Below, in pieces: positions 3,772 through 29,960 of a DNA stretch of 32,000 nt; the stretch's first letter is position 1, and the number at the start of each line of letters is the position of its first letter. The notes beneath the pieces are model-generated. The model had not been told where the DNA came from. It saw only the letters and a list, made by a program, of their open reading frames with translations, and made no database searches. Where the stretch lies: assembly GCA_964543385.1 (NCBI GenBank), contig CAZIYE010000001.1:240001-272000 (forward strand). Reading direction: 5' to 3'. The DNA is from an uncultured Candidatus Saccharibacteria bacterium. GTDB taxonomy: Bacteria; Patescibacteriota; UBA1384; XYA2-FULL-43-10; 1-14-0-10-43-13. The position numbers were made by a program, and so were the translations under genes.

Positions 3772-5223
3772 TTAAACTTTACCTAGATCTAATTCATCAT
3801 CAAACCTTATTTGACTGACGAAATCAGGCATATGACTGACCATGATTAGAGCGCCCTCATATTTATCAACCGCCTTGGCAATTATTGGCAAATGACGGAA
3901 ATTAATATGATTTGTCGGCTCATCTAGAATCAAAAGCCCCGGTTGCATCAATGTCAGACGTGCAAAAGATAGCAAACCCTTTTGTCCTTCTGACAAATCA
4001 CTAACTTTATGGCCCATCAAGTCTCCACCGATTAGAAAACCGGCTGCAATAGAACGCATTGCCTGTATATCCATACTGCCGATTTTAGCACTGCAAAGTG
4101 AATCAAAAACAGTCTGGTCGAAATCAAGATTTGAAAAATCCTGACTATAATATCCGACCTTGGCTTCATCCAAGATCTTGGCATACTGATTCTTGCCGGA
4201 TACTAGCGAACGCAAGAATGTACTCTTGCCAATTCCGTTTGGCCCAGTCACAATAAAATGCATTCGTTTACGGATAATCTTTTCAACTTCTCTTACTCGA
4301 GTCTCGTGATTACGGAAAGCGGTCAAACCACTGATAGTCACAAGATCACCAACAATGTCCTGTACTGGGATATTGAATTCTTTAATAGTCCTATCCTCGT
4401 GTCTAACATCGACAATTTCCTCTTCCATTTCAGCAGCTTCATCCTTCAATTTCTGAGCTAATTTTCGCATCTTACCACCCTTATTGGAAAAGAAGTTCAC
4501 TTTTTCTTTGCGATCTATAATCGATCTTTTTAGTTGAGCGTTTTTTCGCTCCTCACTCTGAACTCGTCTCGCGATCTCTTCCACCACTGAATAATAGTCA
4601 CCGACATAATACTCAATCTTGCGACTGAAAACATTTAGATAAATTACACCTTCTGTAAAACAGTTCAAAAAGTCAGCATCATGCGAAATAACGATCACCG
4701 TCTTGTTGTATCTGATCAAAAATTCGATTAAGTGGTCAATCCCTGCCTGATCAAGATTATTGGTCGGCTCATCAAGTAGTAAAATGTCTGAATTCTGGAT
4801 CAGAGCATATGCCAACAAAAGTCTTGCTTGCTGTCCGCCAGAAAGGTCCCCTACTCGCCTACCGATTGGAATATCGAGATTTACCGCATCCATAACTTTG
4901 TGGATTTTGCTCGGCAAATCATTTGACCGAATCTCAAAGGCTTTGGCAAAATATTCTTCCACAGACAAATCAAGATCTTCACGAGCCACAACTTGGCGGG
5001 CAGTGGCGATAGTAATGTCTTTGGCAATATTGATCTGACCTGATTTCGGCTTTATTTCTCCGGTAATCATGCCAAAGAGAGTGCTTTTGCCTGCTCCGTT
5101 TTGTCCCATCAGAGTAATCTTGGAATTTCTGCGAATAGAAAAAATAGCCTCATCGAGTAGAGGCTTATCATGCTGATATTCAAAACAAACATCATCAAAT
5201 CTTAAAATAACTTCTTCACTCAT
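3772..5223 (-). CDS. ABC-F family ATPase (two tandem ABC domains, no TM domain), 483 aa
   Basis: Two Walker A motifs (GQNGAGKST, GPNGIGKST), two signature motifs (LSGGQQARL, LSEGQKG) and two Walker B motifs (LLLDEPTNNLD, LILDEPTNH). A charged linker (RRVQSEERKNAQLKRSIIDRKEK..) lies between the domains. Confidence 0.9.
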   Translation of the reverse strand: MSEEVILRFDDVCFEYQHDKPLLDEAIFSIRRNSKITLMGQNGAGKSTLFGMITGEIKPKSGQINIAKDITIATARQVVAREDLDLSVEEYFAKAFEIRSNDLPSKIHKVMDAVNLDIPIGRRVGDLSGGQQARLLLAYALIQNSDILLLDEPTNNLDQAGIDHLIEFLIRYNKTVIVISHDADFLNCFTEGVIYLNVFSRKIEYYVGDYYSVVEEIARRVQSEERKNAQLKRSIIDRKEKVNFFSNKGGKMRKLAQKLKDEAAEMEEEIVDVRHEDRTIKEFNIPVQDIVGDLVTISGLTAFRNHETRVREVEKIIRKRMHFIVTGPNGIGKSTFLRSLVSGKNQYAKILDEAKVGYYSQDFSNLDFDQTVFDSLCSAKIGSMDIQAMRSIAAGFLIGGDLMGHKVSDLSEGQKGLLSFARLTLMQPGLLILDEPTNHINFRHLPIIAKAVDKYEGALIMVSHMPDFVSQIRFDDELDLGKV

Positions 5224-5234
5224 ATCTTGGTCTC

Positions 5235-5275
5235 AAAATAAAAAAGGCGTAACCTACGCCATTGGTATTATTATA
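5235..5275 (-). promoter_or_regulatory. leader of the ABC-F gene: -10 box, 2-codon mini-ORF and terminator-like hairpin (possible attenuator)
   Basis: Minus strand reads TATAAT (5275-5270), aatacca, ATG GCG TAG, with the stem GGCGTA (5251-5246) ggt TACGCC (5260-5255) overlapping the mini-ORF, then TTTTTATTTT, only about 11 nt before the ABC-F ATG (5223). Confidence 0.45.
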
Positions 5276-5329
5276 GCACATTCATCACAAAAGTACAGAT
5301 ATTAACAACAATTGTTTCTCTTTTTATCG

Positions 5330-5361
5330 TTGCGGAGCTCTGGTTTATCAGAGCTCCGCAA
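5330..5361. repeat. perfect 13-bp inverted repeat (stem-loop)
   Basis: ttgcggagctctg (5330-5342), loop gtttat, cagagctccgcaa (5349-5361). It lies just downstream (minus sense) of the 30-aa ORF. There is no clean T-run on the minus strand; tctttt follows on the plus strand. Confidence 0.6.
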
Positions 5362-5372
5362 TCTTTTCCACA

Positions 5373-5465
5373 CTATTTACTACTTGTAAGCGGTCCAAGA
5401 CCTTTTTGTTTCTTGTTCTTCTTTGGCTTCTTGACCTCTTTTTTAGCACCCTTATCTTTTCCCAT
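5373..5465 (-). CDS. small lysine-rich basic peptide, 30 aa (below the ORF-track cutoff)
   Basis: ATG at 5465 is preceded by AAAGAGGG at 4-nt spacing; TAG at 5373-5375. Translation: MGKDKGAKKEVKKPKKNKKQKGLGPLTSSK. A stem-loop follows. Confidence 0.4.
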   Translation of the reverse strand: MGKDKGAKKEVKKPKKNKKQKGLGPLTSSK

Positions 5466-5533
5466 ATAACCCTCTTTTTATTTAATTATTTTTATTCTAC
5501 CAGAAAAAATTGATTTATTGTAAAAGATGATTA

Positions 5534-5755
5534 CTATTTTCTTTGTCTAATAAATTCTATTTCTAGCGCAATATAGCCAATCCCAAGTATGATCAATCCG
5601 CCAATCACCTTCTGACTTGGAATATTAAAAGTCGTGGTACCAAAATAATTGAACAACCAAGTTACTGCTCCAATTGCAAATATCGTTGCCCCCGCCAAAA
5701 TCAAGAACATCGCAACCCCAAGAAATGAAACTTTGTTTGGATCTCTTGAAAACAT
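5534..5755 (-). CDS. small membrane protein, 73 aa, two predicted TM helices
   Basis: Perfect AAGGAGG sits 3-4 nt upstream of the ATG. Hydrophobic segments: FLGVAMFLILAGATIFAIGAVTWLF and VIGGLIILGIGYIALEI. Confidence 0.75.
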   Translation of the reverse strand: MFSRDPNKVSFLGVAMFLILAGATIFAIGAVTWLFNYFGTTTFNIPSQKVIGGLIILGIGYIALEIEFIRQRK

Positions 5756-5945
5756 AGTCCTCCTTATAATTATTATTTGCTCTCAAATAGTTCTATGGCG
5801 AATCCAGTAGGATCTTTTATAAAAGCATAGCACTTCGTGAGTTATTCATAAAGCCAAGATAACGATCTTTATCGCTTATTATGAAGTTATCATAGAAACA
5901 TCAAGAAAAGATGAAGAAGATTCTTTATCCCATCTCTTGATCGGA

Positions 5946-6290
5946 TTAGACTTCATTATGTAATCTATAGCATTTACAGGGTTTCTGCTTCAATATCTCC
6001 ACCTGCTCCTCGGGTGTATTAATGAATTCATTCTGAATATTACTACCGGTAGCTAATTCTTCGTCCAATTCGGAATTATGTTTCCATCCTCGCCTTATAA
6101 TCTCGGCTGCTTCTTCCTGATGGCGATTATAGAGCGCTTTTAGCTTACCTGCCCATCTTTTTGTCTCAGGATGGTTAGAATATCCCTTTTTCTCTTCCGT
6201 TAGGATATTCCAGATAGCATGAAGCTCTCGATGTTCGCCAAGTAGATGATTGTCACAGAGAAGTTCTGGTTTTAGATCCCAAATACGCAT
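5946..6290 (-). CDS. pyrimidine-dimer DNA glycosylase / endonuclease V-like (DenV family) protein, 114 aa
   Basis: N-terminal pattern MRIWDL.PE.LC..HLLGEHRELHAIW.I....KKGYSNHPET.RW...L..L..RH is the one I associate with short bacterial DenV-like (Pyr_excise) proteins. No SD. It lies 22 nt downstream of the HD gene. Confidence 0.6.
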   Translation of the reverse strand: MRIWDLKPELLCDNHLLGEHRELHAIWNILTEEKKGYSNHPETKRWAGKLKALYNRHQEEAAEIIRRGWKHNSELDEELATGSNIQNEFINTPEEQVEILKQKPCKCYRLHNEV

Positions 6291-6312
6291 ATAAGTTTTT
6301 AATAAAAATTAG

Positions 6313-6840
6313 TTATTTGTTTTTAGTATATACTGCATTGAGTGTGGTGAATATTGCATCATCGAAATCAGCGGGCTTCATCTCGAGTATCATACCAGAG
6401 ACGTCGTTCAAATAATCTACTCCTGCTTGCCATTCAATAGTTGGATGATAAGTATAGTTTTCCAAGGTATCAGCAGCCTTGATTATTAGTGCATCTTGAC
6501 CGGCTTCGATACAATTGGCTACCATTTTTCTCTTGCGCTCTTTTTTGTCGGCTATACTGTCATCTTTTGTATTGGCAAGGACAAAATCAGCCACTTCTTT
6601 ACCAAATATATTAGTAATTTCGTCGATAGTTGTATCTGTATCCTCAAGCAAATCATGCATAAAGCCGGCCAAAACAATTTCTACTCTATAGCCATGATCA
6701 TATAAATAAATCCCCACGTGTATAGAGTGAAATAAAACTGGTTTTGTAAGCCCATCGGCGTTTTTGAATTTTTCGGTTATAAGAAAAATTGCTTTTTCAA
6801 TTTCTTCTCTATTTAATGTTTCCTGTTTCTTCTCTGGCAT
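6313..6840 (-). CDS. HD-domain hydrolase, SpoT/Mesh1-like (putative small alarmone hydrolase), 175 aa
   Basis: HS..HV......G......LAGFMHDLLEDT matches the RelA/SpoT-type HD motif (H...HD..ED). The size and absence of a synthetase domain fit stand-alone hydrolases. Confidence 0.7.
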   Translation of the reverse strand: MPEKKQETLNREEIEKAIFLITEKFKNADGLTKPVLFHSIHVGIYLYDHGYRVEIVLAGFMHDLLEDTDTTIDEITNIFGKEVADFVLANTKDDSIADKKERKRKMVANCIEAGQDALIIKAADTLENYTYHPTIEWQAGVDYLNDVSGMILEMKPADFDDAIFTTLNAVYTKNK

Positions 6841-24165: not shown

Positions 24166-24305
24166 TAATCTGCCTTCTTTATAATGAATAGAGCTAAAAA
24201 AACTATAACACCTTAACACCATATTGACAATCTATAATATTTCAACTTTTTATTAGACTACCAATATATCACCTTTCAAAACACTGTCTTGCCCAATTCT
24301 CTTTA

Positions 24306-24339
24306 TAAAAAAGACCCTGCAAATGTGGGGTCTTTTTTA
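24306..24339 (-). terminator. rho-independent terminator downstream of the GT2 gene
   Basis: Stem agaccct (24312-24318) / ggggtct (24327-24333), flanked by A6 and T6 runs. Confidence 0.7.
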
Positions 24340-24358
24340 TAATCGGCAAGCTCTCTGC

Positions 24359-25375
24359 CTAGTATCTTCCTACCTTGTTCCAGGCAAATCTTTGATGCTT
24401 CTTGATAGTTGCGGCGACCCTAAAAAGTGCATAAAAATATGAAATAATATTCATGATGTAAAATACTGGAAATAACAGGATATACGGTATTATCCACCAC
24501 TTTTTTTCAATAATTGAGATCAAAAAGGCACATACGTAGATTGTCGCAAACATCCCAGAAACGATATTTAAAATTATGGAAGGATAAAATATCGCAAGTG
24601 TCAATGAAGCTATCCAGATAAAATTATCCAGAAATAGGAAATTCAGTTCGAAATTATATTTAGAATTGATCTTGTGAAGTTTATGTTGAAAATAGTTCTG
24701 CCATGTACCCGTATTCCAGCGCAGAACTTGTCTCCAATAGTCTTTTATTGTGAGCGGGTCTTGAGTTACTACAATTGCCTTTGATACATAAACCACTTCC
24801 CCCAACTTTCTCTGATGAATCTGAATAGTGAGATCAAAGTCCTCGGTCAAAGTTCCATTTTTTAAATCTAGTTTTTTTAGTACTTTGCTGCTGTACATTG
24901 AGGCGCAACCAGGGGCAACGGTAATTACTCTGACAAAGTTCTGAGCATTTTTGTATACCCTATGAGAAAGCCCATACTCAAAGGTTCTAAATGCACTGAT
25001 AAGACCTTTTTTGCGAGACTTAACAGTCCCCACTATCAATGCAGGATTTTCAGCAAGATGAACTTTTATTTCCTCTAAAAAATTTGGGTCAAGCTCGCTA
25101 TCTGCATCGGAAAATAGCACATATTTGTATCGTTTGATCAGTTGATACTTGTCAATAATTTTCTCCTGAGCGAGAGCCTTGCCGTGGTTTTTGCCTAAAT
25201 CCAAAACAAATACTTCTTCCTTCCTTGCTAAACTCACTGTTCTATCCGTTGAACCATCGCTTACTACATAGATGTCCTTCTTATTAAAAATATTTTTTAA
25301 AGAACGCAAAGAAGAGGAAATAACCTTTTCCTCATTAAGGGCGGGTATAACCACGCAAAATTCTCTTTTGGTCAT
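24359..25375 (-). CDS. family-2 glycosyltransferase with processive-synthase signature and C-terminal TM helices, 338 aa
   Basis: CVVIPALNEE, VVSDGSTD, FSDADS (DxD), LTEDFDLT (TED), RQVLRW (QxxRW), then 3-4 C-terminal TM helices. No N-terminal TM helix. Confidence 0.85.
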   Translation of the reverse strand: MTKREFCVVIPALNEEKVISSSLRSLKNIFNKKDIYVVSDGSTDRTVSLARKEEVFVLDLGKNHGKALAQEKIIDKYQLIKRYKYVLFSDADSELDPNFLEEIKVHLAENPALIVGTVKSRKKGLISAFRTFEYGLSHRVYKNAQNFVRVITVAPGCASMYSSKVLKKLDLKNGTLTEDFDLTIQIHQRKLGEVVYVSKAIVVTQDPLTIKDYWRQVLRWNTGTWQNYFQHKLHKINSKYNFELNFLFLDNFIWIASLTLAIFYPSIILNIVSGMFATIYVCAFLISIIEKKWWIIPYILLFPVFYIMNIISYFYALFRVAATIKKHQRFAWNKVGRY

Positions 25376-25488
25376 TATTTATTTCTCAACTTTTTAATTA
25401 ATTTCGATGGTACAAAAATCACTCCCGCAAAAAAAGTAACCGCGAGGTGTCCCAAAAAACTTGGGCCAAATGCAAATGGAAAGTACAT
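25375..25488 (-). CDS. 37-aa single-TM peptide, translationally coupled to the GT2 gene (below the ORF-track cutoff)
   Basis: ATG 25488 is preceded by AAGAAGGAG at 5-nt spacing. Translation: MYFPFAFGPSFLGHLAVTFFAGVIFVPSKLIKKLRNK. Its TAA overlaps the GT2 ATG (TAATG at 25373-25377). Confidence 0.55.
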   Translation of the reverse strand: MYFPFAFGPSFLGHLAVTFFAGVIFVPSKLIKKLRNK

Positions 25489-25703
25489 GTTGCTCCTTCT
25501 TTATTACTACCTTATTTACTTGTAACGATTAAGAACTATCTTACTTTTACTGAATGGTTTTTTTAGTAGTAAATGTCCTAATCAAGCAATACTTGCAATA
25601 AGCTAAAGTTATATAAAATCACAATTACAAAATCTGGTTTTAAATGTAAAACAATAGCATAGGTAAAAATCCATACAATTAAATAACAAGCAAGGAAAGG
25701 AAA

Positions 25704-28349
25704 ATGAACAAAACGATTTTTAAATTTATTGTCATCTTCTCTGTTTTAACCTCTGGACTAGTACCGGCTCCATATTCGAGCAAGGCTAAGGCTGTAGAAA
25801 ACAATTTGGTATCCAACCCATCGGTTGAACAAATTGACAGCACCACCAATATCCCTGTCGGTTGGAAGAATGGTAATTGGGGTAGTAACATAACGTCCTA
25901 CTCGGTTAACTCCATCGGATATAACAGCGATAGAAGCCTTAGAGTAGATATCACCAATTATCAAGATGGTGATGCCAAATGGTATTTTGATAAGGTTACC
26001 GTTGATCCAACAAAAAAATATATATTCTCTGATTACTATCAATCTAATATATATAATGAAGTAGTTGCGGAACTAACAGATCTAAATAACAATGTTAGTT
26101 ACCAATGGATGGGCGGTTTACAGGCGAGCACAGACTGGACAAGATCATCGTTTGAATTCGATGTACCAGCCGGAACAGCCTACCTAACTATTTATCATTT
26201 AATTAATTCCAATGGATTTCTAACCACTGACAGTTACACAATAAATGAGGTGGTCAATGAAAATGCCACAATTACTGACAACGTACCAAATAATAGTTTA
26301 GAACAAATAAATTATCAGGATAATTCCCCTCTCTCTTGGAATAAGAATAGTTGGGGCACAAACACAGCTTCATTTGAATATTTAAACACCGGTCATACCG
26401 GTAGTAAATCAGCCAAAACTATAATATCTGACTATACTAGTGGTGATGCAAAGTGGTACTTTACACCTCAACAAATTGTCGGGGGAAAGACATATCAGTT
26501 TGCCGACTATTATCAATCCAGCATACCTTCACAGGTGATTCTAATGATCACCAAAAGTGATGGTAGCGTTGTATATCAGGAGCTAAAAAGCACCGAGCCA
26601 GCATCTGACTGGAAAGAATATAGTGATAATTTTAATATAGCTACCGATGTCTCAAACATATCGGTATTGCATGTTATTTCTGCATCAGGATTTCTCATAA
26701 CCGATGACTACTCTATTAAGGAAGTAATCCCTGAAAACGTTATCTATACCGATAATGTTCCAAATGCTGGGGCAGAGCAGGTTTCAGCAAATAGCAACTT
26801 ACCCCTAGCATGGAATAGCAACAGTTGGGGCACTAATACGGCTACTTTCGAATACCTAGATACTGGCTATAGTGGTGCAAAATCTCTCAAAACTAGCATC
26901 TCTGGCTACACAGATGGTGATGCTAAATGGTATTTTAATAAGATAGCCCTAAATCCTGCTAGATATACATTCTCTGATTATTATAAATCAGATGTGGCCT
27001 CTGATATCGTTGCCGAATTTGAAGATCAAAATGGCAATATCAGTTATCAATGGCTCGGGACATTTCCGTTATCAAGTGAATGGGCCGAGGCCTCTGTTAG
27101 CTTCGACCTGCCTAGCACAGCCAAATACTTTGCAATATTTCATCTTATTAGTCAAAATGGTTTCTTAATAACTGATGATTATTCGATCAAAAAATCAGAA
27201 GATCGATCTCCTGATTTAACTATCCCAAATGGCAATGTCGAGGAAGTTTCCACTACAGATATCCACCTTCCATCTGGGTGGTCGACAGACAAATGGGGTA
27301 CAAATACAGCTTCATTTGAGTATTTAAACACCGGATACAATAGTAACCGATCATTAAAAACCACTATTTCCGCTTACACGAGAGGTGACGCTAAATGGTA
27401 TTTCAATCACCAAAATGTTATACCGGGAACAACTTACCAATTTTCAAATTATTACCAGTCCGACATTCCCTCACAAGTAACAGTCGAGATAATAAAAGAA
27501 GATGGTAACTATGACTATCTGAACTTAAAGGTTGCCGAAGCATCGGCTACATGGCAGAAATACACCGATACCTTCTCGATACCACTTGGGGTTAGTCAAA
27601 TAACGATATTTCACTTTATCTCAGCAGTCGGTTTTCTTGTTACAGATAATTATTCGATAAATTCTTACCAGCCAACCAGTTTTAGCAGACCAATTGTAAG
27701 CTTAACTTTTGACGATGGCTGGGAGGATAATGTCACTACTGCTTTGCCGGTTATGACTCAATATGGGTTCAGATCAACTCAATATTATGCAACCACTTTT
27801 ATCAATAATAATCAGGCTGAGGCTGCCATCAAGATTGGCCAATTTGTCCTTGCGGGGCATGAAATTGGATCACATAGTATTACACATCCGGATCTGACAA
27901 CTTTAAGCGAGGCTGATTTAATTGCAGAGATAGCAAGTTCCAAGGCGACTCTAGAAGGAATTGCTGGGTTAGGCAATATCAAGGCATTTGCAACACCATT
28001 TGGTGCCTATAATGCAAATGTAGTTACGAAAATACTGGAATATTATGAATCCCATCGTAGTACTGACGTTGGCCTTAATACTAAAGATACCGCCAATATT
28101 GATAACATCCGGGTTAAGAATATGCTCTATAGCACCACTCTTGCAGAATATCAGTCATGGATCGACCAAGCTGTCCGTGATAATGCCTGGCTTGTCCTCG
28201 TTTACCATCGTGTTGCTGATAATCCTGGCGCTTATGATAGCTACATCTCGGATTTCGCCGCTCAAATGCAGTATGTTAACAATTCAGGGATAACCGTTTT
28301 GCCTGTCAGCGAAGCCTTAACCGAAATCACAACACAAATCACGCTATAA
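25704..28349 (+). CDS. secreted multidomain protein: signal peptide, four ~158-aa carbohydrate-binding-like modules, and a C-terminal CE4 (NodB-type) polysaccharide deacetylase domain, 881 aa
   Basis: Signal peptide MNKTIFKFIVIFSVLTSGLVPAPYSSKAKA. Four repeats each carry W(G)(S/T)N..., GDAKWYF, (S/A)(D/N)YY(Q/K)S and GFL(I/T)TD.Y(S/T)I. CE4 motifs: LTFDDGW and HSITHP, plus the rest of a NodB-like domain. Confidence 0.85.
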   Translation: MNKTIFKFIVIFSVLTSGLVPAPYSSKAKAVENNLVSNPSVEQIDSTTNIPVGWKNGNWGSNITSYSVNSIGYNSDRSLRVDITNYQDGDAKWYFDKVTVDPTKKYIFSDYYQSNIYNEVVAELTDLNNNVSYQWMGGLQASTDWTRSSFEFDVPAGTAYLTIYHLINSNGFLTTDSYTINEVVNENATITDNVPNNSLEQINYQDNSPLSWNKNSWGTNTASFEYLNTGHTGSKSAKTIISDYTSGDAKWYFTPQQIVGGKTYQFADYYQSSIPSQVILMITKSDGSVVYQELKSTEPASDWKEYSDNFNIATDVSNISVLHVISASGFLITDDYSIKEVIPENVIYTDNVPNAGAEQVSANSNLPLAWNSNSWGTNTATFEYLDTGYSGAKSLKTSISGYTDGDAKWYFNKIALNPARYTFSDYYKSDVASDIVAEFEDQNGNISYQWLGTFPLSSEWAEASVSFDLPSTAKYFAIFHLISQNGFLITDDYSIKKSEDRSPDLTIPNGNVEEVSTTDIHLPSGWSTDKWGTNTASFEYLNTGYNSNRSLKTTISAYTRGDAKWYFNHQNVIPGTTYQFSNYYQSDIPSQVTVEIIKEDGNYDYLNLKVAEASATWQKYTDTFSIPLGVSQITIFHFISAVGFLVTDNYSINSYQPTSFSRPIVSLTFDDGWEDNVTTALPVMTQYGFRSTQYYATTFINNNQAEAAIKIGQFVLAGHEIGSHSITHPDLTTLSEADLIAEIASSKATLEGIAGLGNIKAFATPFGAYNANVVTKILEYYESHRSTDVGLNTKDTANIDNIRVKNMLYSTTLAEYQSWIDQAVRDNAWLVLVYHRVADNPGAYDSYISDFAAQMQYVNNSGITVLPVSEALTEITTQITL
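25797..27666 (+). repeat. four tandem intragenic domain repeats (period ~474 nt) with an A-B-A-B relationship
   Basis: The GGTGA(T/C)GC(N)AA(A/G)TGG (GDAKW) codons start at 25968, 26442, 26916 and 27384, giving spacings of 474, 474 and 468 nt. Repeats 1 and 3 share SYQW(M/L)G. Repeats 2 and 4 share TYQF..YYQS.IPSQV. Boundaries are approximate. Confidence 0.85.
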
Positions 28350-28360
28350 TATACCATACA

Positions 28361-28388
28361 AAAACAGGCTAGATATCTAGCCTGTTTT
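28361..28388. terminator. bidirectional terminator between the CE4 gene and recO
   Basis: Near-palindrome aaaacaggctagat (28361-28374) / atctagcctgtttt (28375-28388). Confidence 0.75.
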
Positions 28389-28417
28389 GTTGTATCAAAA
28401 GCTATTCTTTTATGTAG

Positions 28418-29204: not shown

Positions 29205-29960
29205 CTACTGATTGCGCCGCTGTAATATTTCTTCAGCTTTTTTTAGTTGCTCAGGATTATTTATACCGAGACCCTCACCAATCTCAGAGACAGGAATACA
29301 TAAGACTTTTTTGTTTTGATTTGCAGCAATTTTTATCATGTCGGTTAGGTAATATTCCCCTTGAGCATTATTGGTGCTCAATTTATCATAATTACCCCAA
29401 AACCAATCAGCATCAAAGATATAAAAGCCAGGATTACACTCCTCGATATCTAGTTGTTCCTCACTGCAATCTTTTTGCTCAACAATATCAACTACATGAT
29501 TGCTTTCATCCTTAATAATTCGCCCAAAAGCCCAAAATCGAGGATTATTAAAAACTACCGAAAGCATAGCTATTGTAGGCTTCTCCTTTTCATGGAGATC
29601 AATCAGCCTCCTAACAGTTTCCGGTTTATACAATGGATTGTCGCCATAGAAGACTATTATAGATTCTGCTTTGCCTTTAAGCACACTCCTTGCTTGGGCT
29701 GCTGCATGGCCAGTACCAAGTTGTTGTTCTTGCACTGCGTACTCAACTTCGTCGCCAAAATATTCTTCAATAAGCTCTTTTCTATATCCCACAACCAAAA
29801 CAACCTTTTTTATGCCAGCATCTTTTATTAATTTGACGCTATGATATATCACTGGCTTTCCAGCCGCCTCAAACATAACTTTTGGAATTGGCGAGGCTAC
29901 ACCCTCATTCATTCTAGTCCCCTTGCCCGCAGCAAGTATTACAGCAGCATATTTCTCCAT
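29205..29960 (-). CDS. GlmU-like sugar-1-phosphate uridylyltransferase (N-terminal pyrophosphorylase domain only), 251 aa
   Basis: AVILAAGKGTRM, EQQLGTGHAAAQA, VFYGDNPL and GEYYLTDMI match GlmU uridyltransferase motifs. The ORF ends without a left-handed beta-helix acetyltransferase domain. AAGGAG lies 6 nt upstream of the ATG. Confidence 0.8.
   Translation of the reverse strand: MEKYAAVILAAGKGTRMNEGVASPIPKVMFEAAGKPVIYHSVKLIKDAGIKKVVLVVGYRKELIEEYFGDEVEYAVQEQQLGTGHAAAQARSVLKGKAESIIVFYGDNPLYKPETVRRLIDLHEKEKPTIAMLSVVFNNPRFWAFGRIIKDESNHVVDIVEQKDCSEEQLDIEECNPGFYIFDADWFWGNYDKLSTNNAQGEYYLTDMIKIAANQNKKVLCIPVSEIGEGLGINNPEQLKKAEEILQRRNQ

Follow-up and report, generated by a model that had tools for sequence, protein, structure and literature searches.

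The question raised by this locus is whether three genes of an ultra-small bacterium form one device for making and modifying a surface polysaccharide. The stretch of DNA analysed (the window, 32,000 nt) is part of a 0.9-Mb genome that is 98.7% complete, and the closest database entries of its proteins are named Patescibacteria or Berkelbacteria. Its minus strand carries a gene for a glycosyltransferase of family 2 (GT2; 24359-25375, 338 aa), preceded by a micro-peptide gene (25378-25488, or 25375-25488 including the stop; 37 codons plus stop). A divergent spacer of 215 nt (25489-25703, 26.5% GC) separates them from a plus-strand gene (25704-28349, 881 aa) for a secreted protein with carbohydrate-binding modules (CBMs) and a deacetylase domain of carbohydrate esterase family 4 (CE4). 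A sequence-only reading had proposed this divergent module; all the features that it described are present, and its shared AT-rich spacer has exactly the length given. The interpretation favoured here, with somewhat better than even confidence, is that the cassette is an accessory, movable unit for a surface or extracellular polysaccharide, which the GT2 and the peptide would make and the CE4 protein would modify. Inferred within it are a processive GT2 and the export of its chain, the peptide as a subunit, the target of the CE4 domain and a role in adhesion or matrix.

Concerning the GT2, the processive signature proposed earlier was found in full, with D40 (DGSTD), D90-A-D92, T177-E178-D179 and Q216-V-L-R219-W220 (within RQVLRW) followed by C-terminal helices. 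These motifs are unchanged in 40 of 40 homologues, in which P155-G156, Y161, W225-Q226 and the C-terminal W332...R337 are also invariant. The Pfam matches were Glycos_transf_2 (75 bits), Glyco_tranf_2_3 (72 bits), Glyco_transf_21 (33 bits) and, marginally, Chitin_synth_2. In NCBIfam, PgaC_IcaA ranked first (82.9 bits, E 2e-23), followed by an arsenosugar-biosynthesis glycosyltransferase (44 bits) and by NodC (42.9 bits). The first score is far under the cut-off of the PgaC_IcaA equivalog TIGR03937 (422.3 bits), and the NodC cut-off is 550 bits. PgaC/IcaA, NodC and Chitin_synth_2 models do match, whereas no cellulose-synthase or BgsA-type model matched at E<0.01 in the Pfam and NCBIfam scans. 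The closest characterised sequence is Escherichia coli PgaC, with 25% identity between residues 8-332 of the GT2 and 79-431 of PgaC (BLASTP, E 2e-20) and an hhalign probability of 99.5. Both proteins end in a basic tail of the form KK..R..W.....R, in which an Arg stands five residues after the Trp.

The GT domain begins at residue 4, with no membrane helix N-terminal to it, so the enzyme is indeed a small synthase lacking an N-terminal membrane segment, as the sequence-only reading had claimed. An AlphaFold2 model built from the family alignment (pLDDT 91.9) presents a GT-A domain, an interface helix with the QxxRW motif (210-230) and three long helices (239-263, 265-290 and 293-326). Towards the C-terminus the model has two membrane helices arranged as a hairpin, then another long hydrophobic helix and finally the basic tail with W332 and R337. 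From the distribution of charges, helices 239-263 and 265-290 seem to be the only true membrane spans, and helix 293-326 would start and end on the cytoplasmic side. When the model was compared with the PDB by Foldseek (TM-scores normalised on the query), the best matches were the hyaluronan synthase (HAS) of a Chlorella virus (8snc, 0.82) and Xenopus HAS1 (0.74-0.78), and then yeast Chs1 and BcsA (0.68-0.70). Non-processive GT2s reached 0.42-0.63, with 0.63 for PcManGT, which resembles dolichol-phosphate mannose (DPM) synthases, and 0.42-0.5 for soluble GT2s. By predicted fold and by family, the GT2 falls with the processive membrane synthases, and presumably it shares their processivity.

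A polyprenyl-phosphate GT2 of the DPM/GtrB type was considered and rejected: QVLRW is present and invariant, and the synthases outrank PcManGT, DPMS and GtrB both in the fold comparison and in the profile comparison. Such a placement would have told against the proposed module; Foldseek favours HAS, Chs1 and BcsA instead, and PgaC_IcaA is the best NCBIfam model.

The GT2 could also be something other than a polymer exporter, making a glycolipid or a short cytoplasmic oligosaccharide (as GT21, MGlcDG-type or NodC-like enzymes) while the secreted enzymes act elsewhere. Its two or three membrane helices, none of them N-terminal, and its Glyco_transf_21 match of 33 bits would fit, and the D,D,D,QxxRW pattern is also found in ceramide and diacylglycerol glucosyltransferases. 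However, the best folds are those of polymer synthases including their membrane helices, with a TM-score of 0.82 over the whole protein, and the NodC model gives 43 bits against a cut-off of 550. Moreover, the conserved partners are extracellular and directed at polymers (CBM repeats, tethered endo-glycanases, a CE4 protein with a signal peptide), whereas NodB is cytoplasmic. We regard this explanation as very improbable.

The micro-peptide noticed upstream of the GT2 gene has a ribosome-binding site (AAGAAGGAG), and its TAA stop overlaps the ATG of the GT2 (TAATG). Its conserved N-terminal motif leads into a single membrane helix, which is followed by a basic tail. Homologous loci, designated here by L and a number, were compared, and the close clade was defined as nine loci including the window, with GT2s 46-67% identical to that of the window. 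An open reading frame (ORF) of 36-43 aa stands directly upstream of the GT2 in eight of the nine, each time with a Shine-Dalgarno-like site, and the offset between its stop and the start of the GT2 is 0 to +11 nt. M1, Y2, G8, P9 and H14 are invariant in these eight peptides and are followed by a hydrophobic span and a basic tail. Public gene calls list the peptide on some contigs and miss it on others (e.g. L100, L106), and no natural fusion of peptide and GT2 was found among 122 homologues. Judged from these sequences, the micro-peptide is a real, conserved and translationally coupled gene, and conservation at the amino-acid level, beyond that of a mere ORF, argues for a functional product. 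With its N-terminus outside, one helix and its basic C-terminus inside, it looks like the N-terminal helix of a synthase encoded in trans.

Another role has to be weighed here. Positions 4-8 of the peptide read LPATG, LPSTG, LAATG, LPAAG, LPVAG and LPMGG in six relatives, only the first two being canonical LPXTG motifs. The window (FPFAFG) and its closest relative (SPIIFG) gave no LPXTG in the same sorting-signal test, with the hydrophobic span and the basic tail present. The peptide could thus be no synthase subunit at all, acting instead as a sortase substrate without cargo or as a translated leader that controls GT2 expression. In favour of this are the LPATG, LPSTG, LAATG, LPAAG and LPVAG versions with their helix and basic tail, the LPxT-type micro-proteins that follow the GT2 in a more distant subfamily with a sortase next door, a sortase encoded elsewhere in the window genome, and a terminator-like hairpin in the leader of relatives. 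Nevertheless, the window and its closest relative have dropped the LPxTG core and kept G8, P9, H14, the helix and the tail, which favours a structural subunit role here. In addition, the sortase of the window genome is unlinked to the cassette, it is the amino-acid sequence of the peptide that is conserved and not the ORF alone, and the hairpin, which the window lacks, precedes the ribosome-binding site of the peptide, while classical attenuators have theirs behind the ORF. A sortase substrate or leader is therefore considered unlikely, and the synthase subunit is preferred.

The distant subfamily just mentioned comprises GT2s of 33-38% identity and has a feature of its own. Its GT2 is directly followed by an ORF (about 55-60 aa) that carries LPATS, LPATA or LPLTG, then a membrane helix and a basic tail (L112:6723-6914, minus strand; L113:1361-1544, minus strand; L111, about 4040-4230, plus strand), and looks like a sorting signal almost without cargo. 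A sortase gene adjoins in L112, L113 and L110.

Regarding the protein encoded on the other side of the spacer, its proposed layout of a signal peptide, four CBM-like modules and a C-terminal NodB/CE4 domain was borne out. The hydrophobic N-terminus (25704-25793, plus strand, residues about 1-30) ends in AKA-VE, and all partner CE4 proteins begin with a similar signal or anchor. It is followed by four tandem CBM4/CBM22-like β-sandwich modules (25794-27674, plus strand) of about 157 aa, which are 36-52% identical to one another in an A-B-A-B pattern. Module 4 scores 34.8 bits with CBM_4_9 (PF02018, cut-off 25.9 bits) and its predicted fold matches CBM22, CBM4-2, CBM11 and CBM16; modules 1-3 reach 16.8-20.4 bits, under the cut-off. 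The last part (27675-28349, plus strand) is a CE4 domain of the metal-dependent, NodB-type deacetylases, with 84.6 bits for PF01522 against a cut-off of 23.1. Its motifs 1, 2 and 5 (TFDDGW, HSITH and LVLVYH), with the metal and catalytic residues (Asp-Asp, His-x3-His and His, respectively), are kept in all partner proteins. The best NCBIfam match of the domain is HfsH, the holdfast deacetylase (67 bits), and the NodB model gives 46.7 bits against a cut-off of 240.

The linkage of the two divergent units is kept in related genomes, where its absence would have spoken against the module. A divergent CBM-CE4 gene lies beside the peptide and the GT2 in seven of the nine close-clade loci (the window, L100, L097, L098, L099, L103 and L105), encoding proteins of 409-881 aa with one to four modules. 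The flanks of these loci are otherwise unrelated, and the same arrangement in independent genomic contexts goes beyond chance. In the remaining two, L107 has the peptide, the GT2 and a gene for a glycoside hydrolase of family 26 (GH26) and no CE4 gene within 6 kb, and L108 has the GT2 alone. A CE4 gene is also present in four of the five loci of the 33-38% subfamily, with CBM-like modules in L111 and L112. Divergence of the GT2 and of the CE4 protein is correlated (Mantel r 0.64, p about 0.002), and shared ancestry contributes to this value.

L098 carries, in addition, a second CBM-CE4 paralogue downstream of its GH26 gene (4825-6588, minus strand). In a domain alignment it looks nearer to the CE4 of the window than the divergent one does, so that two CE4 lineages may circulate.

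The cassette is accessory and probably laterally movable; its presence and absence were observed between close genomes. It was found in four of 61 relatives and in eight of 401 genomes sampled across the phylum. In a genome of the same genus (L125, G001:C9), the syntenic site reads glmU-recO, 792 nt, glyS-mraZ-ftsL, the 792 nt corresponding in position to 24223-28417 of the window, which hold the 4-kb cassette. The recO-glyS gap of that genome (5340-6131) is unrelated in sequence and richer in GC (41%), and no remnants of the cassette were found in its 792 nt. The closest carrier, L100, has its cassette at the opposite flank of recO.

The association of these enzymes is also seen at a greater distance. 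A scan of a genome collection listed 80 loci with homologues, none of the close clade, and most of those listed encode proteins of about 1170 aa, mainly in Acidobacteriota and also in Rhizobium, Methylobacterium and Janthinobacterium. A CE4-domain match is present in 37 of the 80 listed loci. In both proteins checked with Pfam (L083:3583-7140 of Bryocella elongata and L051:3658-7110 of Rhizobium albus), a domain resembling glycoside hydrolase family 18 (GH18), a CE4 domain and a PgaC-like GT2 are fused. The presence of hydrolase, CE4 and GT2 in one polypeptide is an argument for their functional coupling.

These data also bear on the possibility that the CE4 protein, and the hydrolase of the relatives, are offensive or foraging enzymes directed at the wall of a host or neighbour or at an environmental polysaccharide, and are co-regulated with the GT2 through attachment. 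The sequence-only reading had named a host or neighbour cell wall as an alternative target, and Patescibacteria are mostly epibionts. Furthermore, CBM-CE4 and Lic26A-type GH26 architectures are typical of systems that degrade plant cell walls (PMC7157769). Yet a tight, long-kept adjacency and fusion into single polypeptides are the mark of enzymes that work on what their synthase makes, with Pga, Bcs and Pel as examples, and the GH26 is tethered to the membrane beside the synthase, not released. A foraging function seems most improbable to us, and modification of the cell's own polymer is the reading retained.

Which polymer this could be is suggested in part by the hydrolases of the relatives. 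A GH26 gene directly follows the GT2 in six of them. Its product is about 50% identical to Lic26A of C. thermocellum, a β-1,3-1,4-glucanase, with both catalytic Glu residues kept; it combines a signal or anchor with a linker rich in Ser and Thr and has a membrane anchor at its C-terminus. Lichenase activity has also been demonstrated for a close relative of Lic26A (PMC7157769). In two loci of the distant subfamily there are instead genes of glycoside hydrolase family 16 (GH16), whose best matches are the ExoK and BglS lichenases. Two unrelated families of lichenase-type hydrolases, together with CBM4/22-like modules, point to a gluco-type backbone with β-1,3/1,4 linkages. On the other hand, the best-scoring synthase families of the GT2 all transfer N-acetylglucosamine (GlcNAc), and acetyl groups would come most simply from an N-acetyl sugar, since no cassette contains an acetyltransferase. 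A product of the GlcNAc or poly-N-acetylglucosamine (PNAG) type, which the sequence-only reading had suggested, is thus not established: the GH26 and GH16 enzymes of the relatives are of lichenase type and the modules resemble CBM4/22.

The same machinery could accordingly make a plain mixed-linkage β-1,3/1,4-glucan of the kind made by rhizobial BgsA or Romboutsia RiGT2, with the CE4 domain not de-N-acetylating it but removing O-acetyl groups added by an unlinked enzyme, or acting on the cell's own peptidoglycan while the CBMs sit in the glucan layer. The GH26 partners with their likeness to Lic26A (PMC7157769), the ExoK- and BglS-like GH16 enzymes, the CBM4/22/11-like modules, the acetylxylan esterases among the best solved relatives of the CE4 domain and a GalU-like gene in the genome are all compatible with this. 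Against it stand the matches of the GT2 to PgaC/IcaA, NodC and Chitin_synth_2, and to no cellulose-synthase or BgsA-type model, the build of the mixed-linkage glucan synthases known from bacteria, which are large, BcsA-like and equipped with cyclic di-GMP (c-di-GMP) domains (PMC10374906, PMC5567048), and the GH18 chitinase-like domain of the distant fusions. The CE4 protein is, moreover, the most constant partner of the GT2, with no acetyltransferase beside it in any cassette. A plain glucan is a possibility to be taken seriously, albeit a doubtful one. Most likely, the product is a β-glycan which the cell exports and then deacetylates on the outside, with the GlcNAc type and the mixed-linkage glucan type both as candidates. 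Our best guess is a gluco-configured β-glycan containing N-acetylhexosamine (HexNAc), possibly with mixed β-1,3/β-1,4 linkages, which would reconcile the sugar clues.

If the favoured interpretation of a polysaccharide cassette is followed through, the cytoplasmic GT-A domain would polymerise a UDP-sugar into a β-linked chain, which would be threaded out through the helical hairpin and the interface helices, a set far smaller than in characterised synthases. The co-translated 37-aa peptide would act as a stoichiometric membrane subunit, providing the helix that PgaC, NodC and HAS have at their N-terminus, and the synthase would probably oligomerise as well. Outside the cell, the four CBM4/22-like modules of the secreted protein would hold the nascent polymer and the CE4 domain would strip its acetyl groups, giving a cationic, sticky material. 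In the relatives, the membrane-tethered Lic26A-type GH26 would trim the chain, a gene that the window genome would have lost or never had. The polymer could serve the adhesion or the matrix of an epibiotic cell.

Several observations weigh against this interpretation. The two clear spans and the single long hydrophobic helix of the GT2 do not suffice for a closed channel: a channel in a single polypeptide would take at least six helices, and here three follow the QxxRW helix. Export is consequently an assumption, and since the GT2 alone lacks a closed channel like that of HAS or BcsA, the channel would need the peptide, oligomerisation or both. The N-terminus of the relatives' micro-peptide resembles an LPxTG sorting motif, hinting at another role. 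The Arg of CE4 motif 3 (canonically R-P-P-Y/F) is absent across the subfamily (FATPFG in the window, FAxPYG or FSVPYD in relatives), and among solved structures the CE4 domain, by PDB sequence and fold, comes nearest to acetylxylan esterases, with peptidoglycan and chitin deacetylases next. A search with the GH26 of a relative found no cassette hydrolase in the window genome. Moreover, the sugar clues conflict, as lichenase-like GH26/GH16 and CBM4/22 favour a β-1,3/1,4-glucan, while PgaC, NodC and chitin synthase as best-scoring families and the lack of a cassette acetyltransferase favour HexNAc. Exclusion does not fix the donor sugar either, because the window genome, with its GalU-like, ManC-like and GlmU-N-like nucleotidyltransferases, can make UDP-Glc, GDP-Man and UDP-GlcNAc.

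A more far-reaching version of the idea, which is speculative and rather unlikely, would make the cassette a previously undescribed class of two-part minimal polysaccharide synthases in ultra-small epibiotic bacteria. In these, a peptide derived from a sorting signal would complete the channel of the GT2 hairpin or anchor it, the product would be a glue of mixed-linkage, partly de-N-acetylated hetero-glycan, and the relatives with LPxTG motifs and sortases would couple the polymer or the synthase to the wall.

The spacer between the divergent genes offers candidates for their control. Two blocks, AGTAAAAGTAAGATAGTT and TTTGTAATTGTGA (25534-25551 and 25619-25631, minus-strand sense), are identical in an alignment with the closest relative L100, whose proteins are 60-67% identical to those of the window, and each is present as a single copy in the window. 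A function as promoter or operator elements is probable. A promoter and terminator scan of the window did no better than on shuffled sequence, and no credible match to Rfam families was found in the spacers of the window or L098.

The leaders of five relatives have in common a GC-rich hairpin with the core GAGGG...CCCTC and a T-run behind it, a conserved element which looks like a terminator or attenuator. It lies on the minus strand in L097 (3951-4030), L098 (9147-9226) and L099 (9144-9223) and on the plus strand in L105 (7797-7876) and L107 (5810-5889). In L097 and L098 it is preceded by a good promoter (TTGACA / TA(G/C)TAT) and followed by the ribosome-binding site of the micro-peptide. It is missing from the corresponding leader of the window (25489-25568) and from that of the closest relative.

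The cassette is flanked by housekeeping genes, with glyS, mraZ, ftsL and a penicillin-binding protein on one side and recO and a GlmU-N-type nucleotidyltransferase on the other. The latter gene (29205-29960, minus strand) lies 0.86 kb from the CE4 gene, with recO between them, which agrees with the 0.9 kb given for a GlmU-type gene in the sequence-only reading; a conserved link to the cassette does not hold, as the proximity is local synteny only. The gene was rejected as a member of the cassette because it sits in a conserved glmU-recO-glyS-mraZ neighbourhood that also occurs where the cassette is absent. Its 251-aa product is the N-terminal uridyltransferase half only, lacking the acetyltransferase domain (248 bits against a full-length model cut-off of 450), and relatives have the gene in the same truncated form.

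The genomes of Patescibacteria are tiny, and the cells live in attachment to those of other organisms. To our knowledge, how they stick to these cells and coat themselves is largely unexplained. If the favoured interpretation is right, a portable cassette of three or four genes would give an ultra-small cell an adhesive or protective polymer and would be a concrete candidate for this function. The 338-aa GT2 and the 37-aa peptide would then be about the smallest known machine of the class of hyaluronan, chitin, cellulose and PNAG synthases, a size attractive for structural work on polymerisation and threading through the membrane, and the peptide is a conserved micro-protein of the kind that gene callers often miss. 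Furthermore, the mismatch between a PgaC-like synthase with a CE4 partner and hydrolases of lichenase type suggests an uncatalogued polymer chemistry. No paper on this module was found, and none joining Patescibacteria with polysaccharide deacetylase and glycosyltransferase; a paper on the candidate phyla radiation and PNAG is about other phyla (PMC9530719). The cassette resembles known biofilm-polymer systems, is differently built and appears to be unpublished.

Among these systems, the closest parallels are PgaABCD and IcaADBC. The GT2 is homologous to PgaC over its whole length (25% identity), with TED, QxxRW and the basic tail with W and R. As in Pga and Ica, the synthase has a small membrane protein from the same operon, there PgaD or IcaD, and the activity of PgaC depends on PgaD (PMC8461298). 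An extracytoplasmic CE4 (there the N-terminal part of PgaB, or IcaB) is likewise shared, and the relatives also have a dedicated glycoside hydrolase. The differences are nevertheless substantial and agree with the departure from described operons noted earlier, namely the missing N-terminal membrane segment, the upstream micro-peptide and the extracellular four-module deacetylase. The GT2 is 100 aa shorter than PgaC, without the N-terminal part of about 70 residues that bears two membrane helices, and scores 83 with TIGR03937 against 422. Its partner is a 37-aa peptide with one helix, encoded upstream and unrelated to PgaD or IcaD, whereas PgaD is encoded downstream; a scan with PgaD, which covered loci other than the window, gave no PgaD-like match. 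The deacetylase carries four CBM4/22-like modules, the hydrolases of relatives are GH26 or GH16 of lichenase type and not GH153, and neither an outer-membrane porin nor any sign of control by c-di-GMP is present. As a synthase-dependent exopolysaccharide system, the cassette would work in the manner of Pga/Ica, but with the score under the cut-off, the N-terminal helices absent and the small partner and hydrolases different, it is not a member of that family.

Class I HAS (Chlorella virus, Xenopus HAS1), Chs1 and BcsA share with the GT2 the fold, including membrane and interface helices, and the D, DxD, acidic and QxxRW motifs, although sequence identity is 13-17%. HAS has six membrane helices, BcsA eight, and both a closed channel, in contrast to the two or three helices and separate peptide found here. 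The GT2 has TED, as BcsA and PgaC do, and not GDD or EDR. The conserved W-x5-R after its last helix is presumably spaced like the WGTSGR loop of HAS. The scores for NodC and NodB stay under their cut-offs (42.9 against 550 bits and 46.7 against 240), and the CE4 protein, unlike the cytoplasmic NodB, begins with a signal peptide and bears four CBMs.

In BgsA of Sinorhizobium and RiGT2 of Romboutsia ilealis, a single GT2 makes an extracellular β-glucan that is cut by lichenase (PMC5567048, PMC10374906). The lichenase-type partners in the relatives of the cassette suggest a similar backbone, but BgsA and RiGT2 are large and BcsA-like, contain c-di-GMP-binding or PilZ domains and have no CE4 partner, and the NCBIfam search gave no family match of the GT2 to this type at the sequence level. 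Single synthase-type GT2s for capsules are reportedly also relied on in other reduced genomes, those of Mycoplasma (PMC11658790). Finally, the fusions of about 1170 aa in Acidobacteriota and Rhizobiales unite the same triad of hydrolase, CE4 and PgaC-like synthase, with a GT2 part 26-32% identical to that of the window. They differ in having GH18, N-terminal synthase helices and no micro-peptide, whereas in the window the domains are split between separate genes.

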